NCBI RefSeq assembly: GCF_963921235.1
Contig: NC_086097.1
Location: 64,854,001-64,918,000, forward strand
From: Mobula hypostoma
Taxonomy: Eukaryota
DNA length: 64,000 nt
Direction: 5' to 3'
Numbering within the stretch: the stretch's first letter is position 1; each line of letters opens with the position of its first letter. Below the pieces are notes generated by a model, which searched no databases, was not told where the DNA came from, and saw only the letters and a program-made list of their open reading frames with translations. This document shows, piece after piece, positions 51,236 to 60,554 of the stretch. Both the position numbers and the translations under genes were made by a program.

Positions 51236-52523
51236 CTAGCAGAAGTTAGAGAAGTCAATGTTCATGCCATCAGGTTGGAGGCTACCCAGACGGAATATAA
51301 GGTGTTGTTCCTCCAACCTGAGTGTGGCTTCATCTTTACAGTAGAGGAGGCCATGGATAGACATGTCAGAATGGGAATGGGATGTGGAATTAAAATGTGT
51401 GGCCACTGGAAGATCCTGCTTTCTCTGGCGGACAGAGCGTAGATGTTCAGCAAAGCGGTCTCCCAGTCTGCGTCGGGTCTCACCAATATATAAAAGGCCA
51501 CATCGGGAGCACCGGACGCAGTATATCACCCCAGTCAACTCACAGGTGAAGTGATGCCTCACCTGGAAGGACTGTTTGGGGCCCTGAATGGTGGTAAGGG
51601 AGGAAGTGTAAGGGCATGTGTAGCACTTGTTCCGCTTACACGGATAAGTGCCAGGAGGGAGATCAGTGGGGAGGGATGGGGGGGGACGAATGGACAAGGG
51701 AGTTGTGTAGGGAGCGATCCCTGCGGAATGCAGAGAGGGGGGGGAGGGAAAGATGTGCTTAGTGGTGGGATCCCGTTGGAGGTGGCGGAAGTTACAGAGA
51801 ATAATATGTTGGACCCGGAGGCTGGTGGGGTGGTAGGTGAGGACCAGGGGAACCCTATTCCTAGTGGGGTGGTGGGAGGATGGAGTGAGAGCAGATGTAC
51901 GTGAAATGGAGGAGATGCGTTTAAGAGCAGAGTTGATAGTGGAGGAAGGGAAGCCCCTTTCTTTAAAAAATGAAGACATCTCCCTCGTCCTAGAATGAAA
52001 AGCCTCATCCTGAGAGCAGATGCGGCGGAGACGGAGGAATTGCGAGAAGGGGATGGCGTTTTTGCAAGAGACAGGGTGAGAAGAGGAATAGTCCAGATAG
52101 CTGTGAGAGTCAGTAGGCTTATAGTAGATATCAGTGGATAAGCTGTCTCCAGAGACAGAGACAGAAAGATCTAGAAAGGGGAGGGAGGTGTCGGAAATAG
52201 ACCAGGTAAACTTGAGGGCAGGGTGAAAGTTGGAGGCAAAGTTAATAAAGTCAACGAGTTCTGCATGCGTGCAGGAAGCAGCGCCAATGCAGTCGTCGAT
52301 ATAGCGAAGGAAAAGTGGGGGACAGATACCAGAATAGGCACGGAACATAGATTGTTCCACAAACCCAACAAAAAGGCAGGCATAGCTAGGACCCATACGG
52401 GTGCCCATAGCTACACCTTTAGTTTGGAGGAAATGGGAGGAGCAAAAGGAGAAATTATTAAGAGTAAGGACTAATTCCGCTAGACGGAGCAGAGTGGTGG
52501 TAGAGGGGAACTGATTAGGTCTG
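51236..52523 (-). pseudogene. Penelope RT (C-half) + GIY-YIG endonuclease, 5'-truncated but stop-free
   Basis: QTKGVAMGTRMGPSYA, RYIDD, FLDL, YYKPT, CxxxxCxxC, VIYCVRCSRCGLLYIGET..R..EH..E..G.N. Confidence 0.93.
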
Positions 52524-53709
52524 GAAATGGAGAGTTCAGCTTTCATTTTCAGATATAGTCCTAGTAGAAATGGAGTTGAGAGACAAGTTGAACTCGTTCC
52601 ATGTCAATGGCATTTGAAATCAAGGAGGGCAGGTGACTGGCAAATGAGATACCGGCCCTTCCCAGACAGGGAGGGGTTACTATCACTTCTGTAACTACAG
52701 ATTAATTAATTCCATGTTCTCAAAAATAGCCATTGTGTATCCTATTCATGCCAGAGTAAAACCATTAATTTTTCACTCTCTAAATTAAGAAACCATAAAC
52801 TGGCAAGCCAGCGAGGGTCTGATTTTTATTTCCATGTTCAAATTTCAGGATTAGATTCACCTCTTAGTCTTAGAGTTGGCTTGTCAGGGAAACCTTAAGG
52901 ATAGGAAACTTTGATTGCTCAGAATGAGAGTAAACACTTGTGCGAGGAGGCAGAAATAAGTCATCAGTTTAACAGCTGTCCTATACCAACATCTGCAGGT
53001 TCACTCTCACTCAATGCCATACATCACTAGTACTAACACCAGAAATGAGAAACCTCACACCTTGGGAAAGACGTTGTAGTTGTGTGTATTGAAGTAATAG
53101 AGACATGCAGTATGAAAACAGGTCCCTTTATTCCCACTCTTTGCCTCCAAGCAATCAGCCAATGTACAATCCATGCCAGTATCTTTCCTGTAATACCATG
53201 AACTCTCAGCCACATGTGTGACACCTTGTCAAAGGCTTTCTGAAAATCCAAGCACACAACAACCAGCAATTCTCCTTTGTCTGTCCTGCTTGTTATTTCT
53301 TCAAAGAGTTCCAACAGATTTGTCAGGCCAGGTTTTAAATTAAGGAAACCATGCGGACTTCAGCCCATCTTACCATGTACCTCCAAGTACCCCAAAAACA
53401 CATCCTTAGCAGTCAATTCCAACATCTTCCCAACCACTAAGGTCGGACTAACTGACCCATAATTTCTTTCTGTCTCTCTCCCTTCTTGAAGAGTGGAGTG
53501 ACATTTGCAATTTTCCAGTCTTTTGGAACCATGCCAGAATGTATTGATTCTTGAAAAATCATTATTAATACAATCTCTTCAGCCATCTTTTTCAGAACCA
53601 TGGGGCTTAGACCATCTGTTCCAGGTGATTTATCTACCTTCAGACTTTTTAGTTTCCCAAGCAATTTCTCCCTAGTAATAGGAACAGCACACACTTCCTG
53701 ACACTCTCG

Positions 53710-54517
53710 TTTGATCTCATAGGACTAGATGTTTCAATCCCTTTAATAAGCAGATCCTCACTCGGGTCATAGCATAGAGATCTTGAGGTGGGACTTGGTG
53801 GATGACAGAGGTCATCACCCCTTTCTTAGATGTTTTGTCAATTTAAGCCCACTACATCTCCACAGGTCCCTAGTGCACTCCCTTCACATCTGGCCACCCA
53901 TGGGTCATTTTAGGGCCAGCTGCCGTCAGTCCTCTCATCCATAACCTGTGGCTGCTTCGCACTGCTACGTCCAAGAATTCTTTTATAGCTCGGCACTGGC
54001 CCTGGCCTCGGACCCCCAATCCCTTCCGCAATCGGATCATGGAAGTAGTCACAAATCCTCTACAACCAAGCTGTACTGGGAAAATCTGCACCTTCCATCC
54101 ACACAGCTTAGCGTCTGCGGCCAGCTCAGCCAATCGTACGTGTTCCAGCTCATAGTCCTCGCAGACTGCATCTTCCCAGGGCACCATGAGCTCTGAGATT
54201 ACTACAGCCTTCAGACTGCTGGACCACAAGACCAAATCTGGTCTGAGGGTGGTAGTGGCTATCTCTGGGGGGAAATATTAGCCTTTTGTCAAGGTCGACA
54301 GCCATGTTCCAGTCACGAGCAGGCTCCAGTATGCTCGACGCCAACCGTGTCTCTGAGGGTGGCACTGTCTGTCCTTGCCAGACCAAGGGGATGGTGGTTC
54401 TTCCAGTCATATGGGGCTTGGAGTTATTATCCGGCCTTTGCTTCTCCACAATGGATGCCAAACATCTGAGGACCTGGTTGTGCCTCCATGTGTATCATCC
54501 TCGAGTGAGGCTTACAT
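53710..54517 (-). mobile_element. 3' fragment of a restriction-like-endonuclease non-LTR element (Hero-like)
   Basis: YTWRHNQVL, ELMVPWED, GWKVQIFPVQLGCRGF motifs. Confidence 0.8.
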
Positions 54518-54672
54518 CTAGAGTCTTCCACAGTGGAGAATGATGCAAAATACTTATTCAGCTTATCCTCCATTTGCTTGTCCCATTACTATCTTTCCAG
54601 TGTTATTTTCCAGTGGTCTAACACCTACCCTTACCTCCTTTTTACTCTTTTTCTATCTGAAAAGGGATGCAT

Positions 54673-54850
54673 GGGGTGCATGGGAGGGGTAGCACCTCTA
54701 GATGGGGGGCTTGTTGCACTCCTTGAAGTGGCTCGTCATTGTCCCCACCAATGCCCAGCTCTCACCTGTGGCTCCTCGTAGCTGTTTGCATGCGACAGCG
54801 GCCACACCCTGGGCAACGGCTTCGACAGGCCGGCTAAACCAGGTGAGGGT
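54673..54850 (+). ncRNA. HDV-like self-cleaving ribozyme fold at the RTE 5' end
   Basis: P1 GGGGUGC/ACACCCU, P2 54758-69/54838-50, P3 GGC/GCC, L3 UCCUCG, P1.1 GG then GCAA, P4 CGGCUU/AGGCCG, J4/2 GCUAA with catalytic-position C54834. Confidence 0.82.
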
Positions 54851-55489
54851 AGCCGACGGGTCTGCAACCCTTGCTGAGATAGGAATTTGCTCATCCCAGC
54901 ATGCGAAGACTGCTTCGGTGGATCAGGCGGAGGAAACCCCAGGGGTTCAACAGCTGAGAAGGCATTGCAGCAGCGCATTGTGGTGTGTGTAGGGCGCAGC
55001 AGAGCTCTTAAGAAGACGCGGCCACCCAATGCAGCCAAGGAAGTTGCCAGATGTAACAATTCTTCGTGCCACTGGATCCTGACTTCTGAGGCTGAGAGAG
55101 TGGGATCGTCTCCGTGCAAGGCTTTTCCATTTTAATACCTTTCACGCACTGGTTACACTGTGCAATATTCATCCTCCAACTTTCAATTCCTACCAGTCTT
55201 CCACAAATCCTACAACGAGGGGGGGGAGTGGCAAAGCAACAGGTGGAGGTGACCACTGGGAGTTGTAGTCACAAACCCGCACGTAGGCCGCCTTTGGACA
55301 AGTGGTCGTTCTCCTCTGTACCCACGGCAGCAGAGGGGTCCAGCAACACCAGTGGTGACTGAGCAGCCCTTTTCAGGACAGCACTGCTCACCTTTTGATA
55401 GGGAGGGGCCTAGAAAAGGTGGCTTAAACATTGCCTACCCTACAGACAGATAACTGGCCAGCTTGCCACGGCTGGCAGTTCATCCGCCA

Positions 55490-58400
55490 ATGTGGTTACA
55501 CTCAAAGGAGAAGAAAGAAACTTCTGTTAGAATCATGGAATGTCCGCACACTCATGGACAGAGAGAACTCAGCAAGACCCCAGAGAAGAATAGCCCTGTT
55601 GCCAAGGAACTTTCACGCTACAACATCAACATCACAGCCCTAAGTGAAACCAGGCTTGCAGAGGAAAGATCCCTGACTGAAACCACCAGCAGCTACACTT
55701 CGTTTTGGAAAGGAAAAGGGCAAGATGAAGAGAGGATTCATGGAGTTGGATTTGCAGTCAAGCCCAGCTTCCTGAAACAACCCTCCGACCTGCCCATGGG
55801 AATCAACGAAAGGCTTATGTGGCTACATCTGCCCCTCAGCCACAAACATCACACAACAGTCATCAGTGCTTCTGCCCCCACCATGACCAGCAACTACGAG
55901 ACCATTGAACAGTTCTACGCCGACCTTAGCTCTGTTCGGTGGTCAGTCCCTGCCAACAACGAACTAATCCTGCTCAGTGACTTCAATACCCGAGTAGGCT
56001 GCGATCACAGTCACTGGGAAGGAGTTCTAGACAAACATGGTGTTGGCGATATGAACAGCAATGGCCTCTTGCTCCTTAGCAAATGTGCAGAATACGATCT
56101 CCTCATCACAAACACAGTGTTCAGGCTGGCGAACAAGTACAAGACAACATGGATGCACTCAGGAATCAAACATTGGCACATGATCGACTACGTTATAGTA
56201 CATCACCGAGACATCCGGGATGTCCTCATCGCCAGAGCCATGCGAGGAGTGGAGTACTCGACTGACCACAGGCTTGTCCACACCACATTGAAGCTACGTA
56301 TTGCTCCCCACCATCCCAAGCACCCTAAGTTCATCAGAACAGCTTTTAACACTGCCAGACTCCAAGAGCCGTTGTATCTTCGCAAGTTCCAGACCACCCT
56401 TGTTGAGGAGCTGTCTGCCAAAGGACCACTAACTGGTGGGCCAACCCAGAAGTGGAATCAGTTTAGAGAGATGGTAACGGAGACAGCAAAATCAGTCCTC
56501 GACCCCAAGGACCGGAACCAGCAAGATTGGTTTGACGAGAATAACAGTGCCATCAAAGATCTCCTGGCCAGGAAGAACAAAGCATTCATGGAGTGACAAA
56601 ACGACCCAAGCTCCATTCCCAAAAAAGAGCAGCTCAAGTCCCTTCAGGCCCATGCCCAACTGGAAAATCGCAAGATGCACGACCTGTGGTGGGATAGGAA
56701 AGCTGAAGAGGTGCAACGCTTCGCCGACATCAAGATGGTCTTCGGCCCCTCAAGATCTGGCTCATCTCCACTGTTGTCCACTGATGGAACCACACTGCTA
56801 GAGGACAAAGAGAGCATCCAACACAGATGGAAAGAGCATTTCAGACAGCTCCTGAACCGCCCTTCATCGGTCGATCAGTGTGCTCTGGACCAAATCCCCC
56901 AACAACCTATTCATGAGGAACTAGATTATCCTCCCTCGATAGATGAAGTCAAGAAGGTTATCACGCAGATGAGTAGTGGCAAGGATGGAATACCTGCTGA
57001 ACTGTACAAGGCACTCAGCAAGGAATCACTTGAGACTTTCCACAGCACCCTGACTAACATTTGGGAAGAAGAAGAGATGCCCCTGACCTCAGAGATGCAA
57101 CGATAATCGCCCTCTACAAAAATAAAGGTTCAAGGACTGACTGCGGGAACTGCAGAGGCATCTCACTACTTTCCATTGCCGGAAAAATCCTCGCCCGCAT
57201 CATCCTCAACAGACTGATTCCAACAGTGTTAGAAGAGAACCTTCCCAAGTCACAATGCGGCTTTTGTCCTGAACGCAGCACTGTCGACATGATCTTCGCA
57301 GTGAGACAGATACAGGAGAAGTACCTGGAACAGAACATGACATTGTACTCTGTCTTCATTGATCTGACGAAGGCGTTTGACACGGTCAACAGAAACATGC
57401 TGTGGATCATCCTTAGAAAGCTTGGCTGCCCGCAGAAATTCACTACACTCATCCACCTGCTCCACGATGGCATGACAGGAGAAGTGTTCTCAGACGGTTC
57501 CCCATCTGAGGCTTTCAACATCTCAAATGGCGTGAAGCAAGGGTGCATTCTAGCACCAGTGCTCTTCAACCTCTTCTTCACCCAAATGCTGAAGCATGCA
57601 GTTAAGGACCTAGATCTGGGTATTTACATAAGATATCACCTCGACAGATCGATGTTTGACCTGAGACGCCTTGCTGCAAAGACCAAAATGTTGAGGAGGC
57701 TCATCACTGAAGCCCTGTTTGCTGATGACTGTGCCCTCATGGCCCACCAGGAGAACCACCTGCAGACAATTGTCGACAAGTTCTCCGCAGCCTCAAAGCT
57801 GTTCAGCCTGACAATCAGCCTCAGTAAGACAGAAGTTCTACCACCTGCACCAAACAGTCACCCTCCTCAGCTATGCATCACCATCGATGGCACTGTCCTG
57901 AAGAATGTGGAGAGCTTCAAGTAGCTAGGAAGCTATATCTCCAGTGATGGACCCCTTGACAAAGAGATCATAGCAAGGATCCAGAAAGCCAGCCAGGCAC
58001 TTGGGAAACTCCGTGTCAAAGTTCTGGAGCACAAGGACATTCAGCTTCCAACCAAGCTCAAGGTGTACAAGGCTGTGGTTCTCACCTCTCTCTTGTACGG
58101 CTGCAAAATCTGGACCCTGTACCACAGGCACATCAAACAGCTGCAACAGCTTAACACGCGCTCTCTGCGGTCGATCATGAGGATTCGATGGCAGGACCGA
58201 ATTACCAACCAGGAAGTCCTTGACAGAGCCAACAGCACAGGCATTGAGGCAAGGATCCTCCAGGCCCAGATACGCTGGACTGGCCATGTAATCCGCATGG
58301 GTGAAACAAGAATCCCCAGGCAGCTGCTCTACGGTGAGCTTGAACATGGCAGTCGCAATCTGGGCCGCCCCAAATAAAGATCCAAAGACAATCTGAAATT

Positions 58401-58656
58401 GTGCATCAAATGGGCAGACCTCCAACCTCGACAACTTGAGGAGTCCGCAGCCGACAGGGCTGCATGGCACGCCCTGACCAGAAAAGCTGCATCTGACTTT
58501 GAGGATGACCGAAATCAGCGCCTTGCAGCAGCATGAGACCGACACCACAAAGCTGTGTATGCACCTGTTCTAACAACTGCCATTCCATGTCCAACCTGCA
58601 ACCGTATGTGTGCTTTGGCCTTTGGCCTCCAAAGCCACATGCATATCCACAGATGA
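55490..58656 (+). pseudogene. RTE ORF (APE endonuclease + RT + C-terminal C2H2 finger), several frameshifts and stops
   Basis: WNVRTL, ALSETR, DFNTRVG, IDYV, TDHRLV, RGISLLS, FIDLTKAFD, GVKQGC, LFADD, RWTGHVIRM, CPTC..HMHIH. Confidence 0.93.
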
Positions 58657-60554
58657 CTGCACAATGTTTAGTCTTCCTCGGACCCCGAGAGACACCCACC
58701 TATCCGAAAAAACTTTTGATAACCTCTTTGATATTTTGGTCGGCTTACCTTTGTATTCCGTATTTTCTATCTTTACGACCTTTTAATACTGATACATCTG
58801 ACTTTAGCTTCTCCCTCTCAAATTGCAGGGTGAATTCTATCATATCTGTCCCTGAAGAGTTCCTTTAACTTAAGCTCTTTAATCAATTCTAGTGCAGTGC
58901 ACAACAATCCAAGGACTGTATATAATTCCAATTAGGATCTTTTTACCCTTGCAGTTTCGTAACTCTACCCAGAAGGATTCTACATCTTCCGATAATATGT
59001 AACCTCTTTCTAAGGATTTGATTTCATTTTTACCAACAGAGCCACTTCACTTGCTCTGCCTACCTGCCTGCCCTTTCAATACAATGTGTACCTTGGATGT
59101 TAAGCTCCTAACTATAAGCTTTTGTCAGCTGTGACTCAGTGATGCCCACAATGTCATACCTGCCAATCTCTAACTGTACTACGAGTTAATCTACTTTATT
59201 CCAAAGCATTCAAAAATAACACCTTCAGTCCTGTATTTATCACCCTTTTTGATTTTGTCCCCCTTGCATTCCAACTCATCTCATTGACTGCAACTTTGCC
59301 CCATGATCCTGTTCTTACCAGCAGTCTCACTACTCACTGCCTGTTTATAAACCAACTGCCCCACCTCAGCACCATCACTCCAGTTCCCATGCCCCTGCCA
59401 AATTAGTTTAAACTCTCCTGAACAGGTAGCAAACCTGTCCACGAGAATATTGGTCCCCCTTGAGCTCAGGTGTAACCCATCCCTTTTGTACCTTCCCCAG
59501 AAGCGATCCCAATGATCCATAAATCTGAACCCCTGCCCTCTGCACCAGTTCCTCAGCCACACATTCATCTGCCAAATCATCCTATTCTTAGCTTACTGGG
59601 ACGTGGGACAGGCTCCAATCCAGAGATTACTACCCTGGTGGTCCTGCTGTTCAGCTTTCTACCTAGCTCCCTAAAATCCGTCTTCAGGACCTTCTTGCCT
59701 TTCCTAGCTATGTCGTTTGTACCAATATGTACCAAAACTTCCAGCTGCAAATCCTTCCCCTTTAGAATGCCATGGACCTGATCTGAGACAGTCCTGTCTC
59801 CATCACCCGGGAGGCAACATACCATCTAGGTGTCTCTATCATGTCTACAGAATCTCATCTCTATTTCTCTAACTATGGAATCTCCTATCAACACTGCAGT
59901 CCTCTTCACCTCTCTTCTCTTCTGAGCCACAGCCCCAGACTCAGTGCCAGAGACCCAGTCACTGTAGCTCCCCCATCCACCACCCCCCATCCTCCCACAG
60001 ACGGTCCCACTCAACAGTATCCAAAATGGCATACTTATTATTGAGAGGAGTGGCCACAAGGCTGCCCATTTCCCTTCTTCTCCTGACAGTCACCCAGTTA
60101 CCTGCCTCCTGCAATTTAGGGGTGATTACCTCCCTGTAGCTCATATCTTTCATTTCCTTAGTCTCCCGTGTGCACGGAGTATCAGCTCCAGTTCCTTAAC
60201 ATGTTCTCTGAGGAGCTGCAACTCGGTGCGTGCAGATGTGGTTATCTGGGAGGCTGTAGGTCTCCCAGAATTCCCAATTCTTAAACAAAGAACATAATAC
60301 TGCCCCTGGAGTCATCCTCTCTGCTCTAACAGATGAGGAATGAACAATAAAGAAGAAGAAGCTTACCAGATACTTACCTTGCCCAAGCCTGATGAGCCAA
60401 AGCCACCCCACTCCAACATTGGCCCATTCACACAGTGGCCGCTCTGCTTGCTCCTGCCTTGTTTTTATTTGCCCGTTCACTGATTGGTCACAGTTCAAGC
60501 TCTGAAATCTGCCATGAAGTGCTGCTTTTTTAACCTTTAATCATGGACCTTTTT

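Follow-up and report, generated by a model that had tools for sequence, protein, structure and literature searches.

In HDV, the L3 loop forms the active site and is treated as near-fixed in length, with U27 dispensable, and natural variation is described in J1/2 and P4. HDV-like ribozymes were reportedly found at retrotransposon 5' ends by Ruminski in 2011. They are known from the 5' ends of RTE, R2, R4 and Ingi/L1Tc retrotransposons (PMC5786205, PMC6765202; this and the following comparisons draw on the available parts of the cited papers). The candidate ribozyme described here, located in a 64,000-nt stretch of DNA analysed as a whole (the window), shares with this group a nested double pseudoknot, a G1 that is the first base of the element, U20/C21/C22/G25, the J4/2 C, and short bipartite derivatives that keep the 5' end. 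It differs in a 21-nt helical insertion in L3 and in a predicted, covarying pairing of the inserted loop with the 3' flank.

Among individual ribozymes, drz-Agam-2-1 from Anopheles (PMC4908430) is similar in its large structured J1/2 with P1.2, its 11-12-bp P2 and its peripheral activation, whereas the extra element of the window ribozyme grows from L3 and extends past the 3' end of P2. In L1Tc (PMC4035085), sequence 3' of the ribozyme likewise interacts with it, but that downstream region refolds core strands, while the hairpin loop considered here would pair with a 6-nt site without involving core strands. The L3 region of CPEB3 forms loop-loop base pairs in a dimer (10.1101/2022.09.22.508989); a 4-nt palindrome of the core L3 is used there and P1.1 is lost, whereas the pairing in the window would be made by an additional hairpin and is kept where the palindrome is lost. 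R2 ribozyme variants (PMC3774820) show a comparable 6-7-bp P1 with mismatches at its top and duplicated P1 5' strands near the cut, yet their variation lies in J1/2, P4, J1/4 and small changes of L3 spacing, with no L3 helix described in the available text. Our literature search returned neither an L3 helix nor a loop-to-flank pairing, although figures or supplements of Ruminski 2011, Webb 2009 and Webb and Luptak 2011 may show one; an L3 length limit of published descriptors is not given in the available parts of PMC10879173 and PMC6326823.

Host element and predicted ribozyme core

The element measures 4.0 kb on the + strand of a 3.48 Gb host genome, presumably that of a cartilaginous fish to judge from its repeats, and has its L3 hairpin about 110 nt in from the 5' end. 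Its features are listed below; families A to D are those of the host genome, and L-numbers denote further loci that were compared, among them RTE loci from metagenomes.

54653..54663, +, 5' target-site duplication, 11 nt, 10 of 11 bases identical to 58700-58710
54664..58699, +, full-length non-LTR retrotransposon of the RTE clade (family A), its ORF disrupted by stop codons and frameshifts
54664..54670, +, P1 5' strand; G54664 is G1, the predicted cleavage site; mismatch at position 4 in the window copy and position 7 in the family
54673..54757, +, J1/2 domain; the second GGGGUG repeat and 54745-54757 form a predicted P1.2 helix
54758..54769, +, P2 5' strand; partner 54838-54850 with one bulged C; pairing in 97.4% of cells, a U-A pair changed to A-U once
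54770..54772, +, P3 5' strand GGC; partner GCC 54801-54803
54773..54779, +, canonical L3 core UCCUCGU with the U20, C21, C22 and G25 equivalents
54780..54800, +, L3 insertion, 21 nt: A54780, the 6-bp hairpin 54781-54799 and G54800
54787..54793, +, hairpin loop, 7 nt in all 8 lineages; 54788-54793 is the strand predicted to pair downstream
54804..54812, +, P1 3' strand (54804-54810) and P1.1 GG (54811-54812); P1 of L063 has a G-C to U-A change
54817..54832, +, P4 hairpin; double changes in 5 of 6 pairs
54833..54837, +, J4/2 (G-C-U-A-A) with predicted catalytic C54834, assigned by homology; this C is conserved in A, B, C, D, L063 and L082
54852..54896, +, two hairpins between P2 and the docking site, P5 and P6, by prediction only
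54899..54904, +, predicted docking site, 6 nt, followed by GAAG; 105 nt beyond the hairpin loop and about 50 nt past P2
55454..56596, +, endonuclease region of the RTE ORF, delimited by stop codons on both sides; 65-69% identity to the closest RTE proteins of full length
57058..57924, +, reverse transcriptase region of that ORF; RVT_1, E 4.9e-32
58700..58710, +, 3' target-site duplication, the counterpart of the repeat at 54653-54663

The 11-nt target-site duplication (TSD) sets the element bounds at 54664-58699. From its anatomy, i.e. an ORF with APE endonuclease and reverse transcriptase, the TSD, and a ribozyme-bearing 5' UTR, the element is read as a member of the RTE clade. Its protein relatives at 60-81% identity combine PF03372/PF14529 with PF00078, endonuclease and reverse transcriptase within a single ORF; they are found in amphioxus, molluscs, corals, crustaceans, turtles and opossum. 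The copy in the window shows 14 differences from the family A majority over 255 nt and, with A at P1 position 4, may be impaired as a ribozyme. Just upstream, on the opposite strand, lies a broken fragment of a restriction-like-endonuclease retrotransposon with a YTWRHN motif (53870-54494, -), which we take to be HERO-like, and a Penelope-like ORF occupies 51236-52603 (-), its GIY-YIG match (E 3e-4) falling just under the Pfam cutoff. A likeness to a squamate SINE may exist; the supplement of PMC13295347 does not show it.

The predicted cut site is G54664 and not the repeat at 54673. The 5' end carries two GGGGUG repeats, the one at 54673 pairing best in the window copy; a cut there was rejected, as TSD-defined starts, the edge of conservation and the pairing in L063 all favour 54664. 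Column conservation falls to background immediately upstream of the first repeat, and the 5' ends given by TSDs fall within G1 to G1+2 for 18 of 30 family C copies (51 anchored) and 14 of 21 family D copies (38 anchored), compared with 2 and 1 starts, respectively, at +8/+9. In L063 only the upstream register makes P1. Family B is old, and its TSDs (2/18) are probably spurious. An internal promoter could also give 5' ends at G1, which weakens them as a sign of cleavage. Some copies at L002, L010 and L211 have a third GGGGUG-type repeat upstream of G1, suggestive of occasional duplication at the 5' junction.

An HDV-like fold is predicted at the exact 5' end of the retrotransposon, where it would self-cleave. 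A relaxed-L3 descriptor finds a single fold in window positions 54501-55000. P1 starts at G1 and has 7 bp in families B, C and D, L063 and L082, and 6 bp in family A. We used the canonical 3-bp P3, which energy does not separate from a 4-bp P3 with a 6-bp P1 (-8.0 vs -8.1 kcal/mol). Across 8 sequences whose strands differ, the predicted P1.2 duplex is worth -9.5 to -18.3 kcal/mol, and it appears in computed folds as well. Over 8 lineages, the proportion of paired cells is 97% for P2, 96% for P3, 94% for P4 and 88% for P1.1, all P1.1 misses falling in L067. For the whole proposed structure it is 96.5%, with 11 double-changed pairs (8 lineages; 0 of 500 shuffles; slid controls 29-42%). P5 and P6 both form in the B, C, D1 and A majorities, while L063, L067 and L082 fold otherwise here. 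All hairpin-bearing ribozymes have a single bulged C in P2 (54838-54841), two pairs from P3, which is absent in the canonical L092 and L105.

The features of the HDV-like core were taken from the descriptor of PMC6326823, as far as its available text goes: U20, G25, and the catalytic J4/2 C followed by N-A-A. They are kept in 7 of 8 lineages and lost in L067. Within the L3 core, U, C, C, G and U are kept and positions 23/24 are free in families A-D, L063 and L082; three core variants of hairpin-bearing elements reappear in canonical relatives, and both observations fit continued selection on the active site. The length of L3 departs from the 7-8 nt of HDV-like ribozymes, reaching 28 nt, or 26 nt in family D and L063.

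The L3 hairpin and its distribution

The first-pass annotation had described a 19-nt hairpin (54781-54799) that expands L3 to 28 nt, and the sequence bears this out: UCCUCGUA (54773-54780) is followed by a 6-bp stem with a 7-nt loop and G54800, 28 nt of L3 in all, and then by GCC of P3 (54801-54803). On its own the hairpin is no stabler than shuffled sequence (-5.2 kcal/mol, z -0.91), so its support comes from conservation. It is present in all 30 top genomic family copies, making the insertion a state of the family rather than of one copy, and a pattern spanning it gives 154 matches, against 3 for the control. Pairing is conserved as well: every stem cell is paired across 8 lineages, with one double change (G-C to A-U, the kind of compensatory change the earlier reading had suggested looking for) and one one-sided change. 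One whole pair was gained or lost, and four lineages are without it. Among copies inside one family we found no covariation, only differences of the CpG-decay type, which thus hold no structural information. In a covariance model alignment, the canonical RTE ribozymes L092, L105, L107 and L121 have a 21-position gap at the insertion, which is placed after U26 of a 7-nt L3.

The annotation had also supposed that models with a fixed L3 would miss such a variant. No Rfam HDV-type family scores above the gathering threshold in the window, in line with that expectation, but the same holds for 18 related loci, canonical RTE ribozymes included; the silence of Rfam is therefore not specific to the insertion, although fixed-L3 descriptors likely do miss it. 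The suggested search of relatives with a relaxed L3 covered 80 RTE loci from metagenomes, 62 of them with at least 400 nt upstream. Two carry the full variant, L063 and L082, both with intact ORFs of about 1,100 aa. L067 (350-530, a single contig) keeps the hairpin and the loop-site pairing; its L3 core, P1.1 and J4/2 C look lost, and its 1081-aa ORF is intact. Plain L3 loops of 7-8 nt occur in about 11 loci, and in the remaining ones, many of them truncated, no ribozyme was found. Shuffles score up to 32.4 with this descriptor, canonical ribozymes 37.9-40.3 and L063 35.5, and four matches at 31-33.5 were dropped as noise. Pattern matches in viral contigs (0/49/0) and prokaryote genomes (6), 55 altogether, had no flanking ribozyme and were discarded as chance; a protein scan of the viral contigs confirmed none.

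Families B, C and D of the host genome have the same architecture as family A. They are short (TSD-defined lengths of about 560 nt for C and 530 nt for D), and B and C have no endonuclease match. The ribozyme motif was also seen in sequencing-run DNA of several other organisms. In runs X9-X14, X1, X3 and X12, from other organisms' DNA, the B-type ribozyme is far commoner than family A, and in run X11 the P1 3' strand occurs in a major variant form.

Mapped onto a tree built from the endonucleases of 29 proteins, the hairpin state requires at least 3 changes by well-supported branches, and a single change is enough in 0% of the 200 bootstrap replicates. Grouping the hairpin state in one clade is rejected by an AU test, the constraint also excluding 13 rows of unknown state. 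This leaves transfer of the 5' module between RTE lineages or repeated loss of the hairpin; transfer is favoured by near-identical ribozymes on endonucleases only 44% alike (L063). A different conserved fold, with a 12-14-nt loop and a GAAUAAGCAG-like motif present twice, occurs in the 5' UTRs of L072 (130-240), L083 (630-700) and L111-L113; Rfam gave 0 matches on L072, L083 and L111.

Probable pairing of the hairpin loop with a downstream site

Loop positions 2-7 are complementary to the docking 6-mer, which, together with the GAAG behind it, is common to hairpin-bearing elements. A search allowing 2 mismatches did not find the 6-mer in six canonical relatives, whose 3' flanks are unrelated anyway. 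The loops seen first are palindromic, and from them pairing, dimerisation and a protein motif are indistinguishable. Family D, found by pattern search, has non-palindromic loops. An A to G change at its site was predicted before the sequences were fetched, and 40 copies were chosen by loop sequence alone, of which 38 could be parsed. Loop position 5 is C in 34 of these 38 and site position 3 is G in 33, the misses being products of CpG decay. The corresponding loop U and site A are found in 28/29 and 28/29 copies of family A, and in 56/57 and 57/57 of family C. For both D loop forms the site ends in U, a letter able to pair with G or A; for D1 a C had been predicted here, and the pair turned out to be a wobble. 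As a control, we took 30 B/C copies with a private U to C change in the loop: the site A is kept in 25 of the 27 that have the site (counted by eye). Copies of family B parse poorly (11/26) and are too decayed at site position 3 (A 5, G 3, T 3).

Across 8 lineages, 47 of 48 loop-site cells are paired and 4 of 6 pairs are double-changed (0 of 500 shuffles, a control that ignores relatedness; slid controls 2-67%). Among 4,041 gap-free 6-bp window pairs the combination ranks best, beside P4, and the loop's next partner reaches 32/48. Of all segments within about 400 nt, the site complements the loop most strongly in 8 of 9 sequences. L082 has its loop and its site both shifted by two, each pairing only with the other (5/6), and there the loop has at least five better partners than the homologous site. 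Opening the site would cost a predicted 1.0-1.8 kcal/mol in A, B, C, L063 and L067, and 3.1-4.4 kcal/mol in D and L082 (L082 3.6), with 7.4 kcal/mol in the window copy. Pairings of the loop with the P1 5' strand or J1/2 were considered and set aside, being weaker and not conserved in register; further loop variants sought in the genome were only single-copy mutants or chance matches.

The number of independent events is small: D1 and D2 are a single event, and one slip in L082 accounts for three of the four double-changed pairs. This leaves two independent concordant events, in D and L082, plus wobble exchanges. Given 9 A to G differences in 47 between D and C, the concordance in D alone has a chance of about 1 in 5. 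Taken together, these comparisons of sequence make it probable that loop and site pair, and the helix would likely constitute a third pseudoknot in an HDV-like ribozyme. Pairing between two molecules is possible. The hairpin is real and conserved, and it marks a variant of a known ribozyme class whose third pseudoknot is likely. The earlier reading lacked the covarying downstream partner of the loop, which appears the more likely reason for retention of the hairpin.

Proposed function and competing readings

We propose, with a probability of about one half, that the element encodes an HDV-like ribozyme in which the loop-site pseudoknot braces the hairpin-enlarged L3 in its active shape. The ribozyme would cut the element RNA free before G54664; the hairpin loop would pair in cis with the 6-nt site about 50 nt past P2, a contact that we infer to help rather than hinder cutting. 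The open L3 creates decoys. U20 can pair with the linker G54800, which is favourable by 2.4 kcal/mol in 7/7 sequences and appears in the RNAalifold consensus, and a helix of the P3 5' strand with J4/2 beats native P3 by 1.6 kcal/mol (5.4 in D) when folding is modelled as nested, with P1 and P1.1 left out. The latter mispair would bury the catalytic C. A contact that fixes the direction of the hairpin would thus offset the cost of the insertion. Efficient cutting would then require that the 5'-most ~240 nt of the element have been made. About 50 nt are made within seconds at Pol II speed; since the site is made only this far after the core, it can act before cleavage. That the module is kept in non-coding families argues against a role solely in translation of the element ORF. 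Peripheral domains activate HDV-like ribozymes, and peripheral contacts in hammerhead and hairpin ribozymes have the same kind of offsetting role (PMC4908430, in its available parts). Still, several observations weigh against the brace: independent concordant events are few, with the noted 1 in 5 chance for D; the L082 site ranks poorly among the loop's partners; opening costs are raised in D, L082 and the window copy; L067 keeps the pairing with a degenerate core, which fits a non-catalytic role; and, as far as the available text of PMC4035085 shows, the downstream region of L1Tc attenuates its ribozyme.

The last two points lead to the best-surviving alternative, which we regard as unlikely though serious: the loop-site helix is real but serves as an attenuator or after cleavage, compacting the 5' domain for RNA protection or recognition by the RTE protein. 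The same covariation is expected in this case. Moreover, hairpin and site persist in L067, where the core is degenerate and the ORF intact, the non-coding families B, C and D keep both loop and site, and the attenuator of L1Tc, for which a post-cleavage switch was proposed, provides a precedent (PMC4035085, available parts). However, L067 is a single contig, copies of the hairpin-bearing families start at G1, so that processing is not abolished, and the loop and site strands overlap no core pairings.

It is less probable, and in our view doubtful, that the hairpin is a passenger, tolerated because it sits in an L3 turn exposed at the surface, its downstream complementarity being a coincidence of descent. 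The ordinary stability of the isolated hairpin, the small number of independent lineages and the background of about 0.2 for the D site change are compatible with a passenger, and canonical RTE ribozymes presumably work without any hairpin. Against it stand the two separate concordant changes in D and L082, the loop length fixed at 7 nt, the top rank among the 4,041 window pairs, and retention of the hairpin in lineages whose endonucleases are only 43-46% identical to that of the window.

A palindromic loop could also signal a kissing dimer or a protein-binding motif, and the loop UGCAUG resembles the RBFOX site. The loop 6-mer is self-complementary in A, B, C, L063 and L067, and a palindrome in L3 dimerises CPEB3 ribozymes in crystals (10.1101/2022.09.22.508989, available parts). 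The non-palindromic loops of family D (2 and 4 of 6 positions mismatched) and the L082 loop, which self-pairs at 4/6, nonetheless make dimerisation very improbable, and the absence of GCAUG from the D loop and site and from the L063 loop does the same for a protein motif. Least credible is the folding switch of the first-pass annotation, in which P3 toggles between GGC/GCC and GGC/GCU with the hairpin melted: 7 of 8 lineages do have GCU next after the L3 core, and this pairing could arise transiently while the RNA is being made, but the alternative is worth -1.3 kcal/mol against -8.0 (-7 to -9 as a range), shows no covariation, leaves 17-20 nt between P3 and P1, and pairs at 1 of 3 positions in L067.

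Returning to the bracing contact, a helix in L3 that occurs in thousands of genomic copies with 5' ends at G1 marks a new tolerated insertion point. If the proposal is correct, the contact between the L3 helix and the 3' flank would belong to a type of peripheral tertiary interaction that, according to PMC4908430, had not been put forward for the HDV-like family. We consider it an even bet that such elements form an HDV-like subclass in which the L3 hairpin docks beyond the 3' end, as a counterpart of the hammerhead peripheral loop contact. Cleavage in this subclass would depend on the downstream 5' UTR, and the module would move between RTE lineages as a unit, being invisible to fixed-L3 searches and undercounted in animal genomes. 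The loop-site contact would offer a natural allosteric handle for riboswitch design, and it bears on the design of 5' UTRs in RTE-based gene insertion (PMC13708176, available parts). Elsewhere in the leader, directly before the ORF, an 80-nt stretch (55355-55435) is strongly conserved at about 75-85% in most of the 80 RTE loci and is likely structured.
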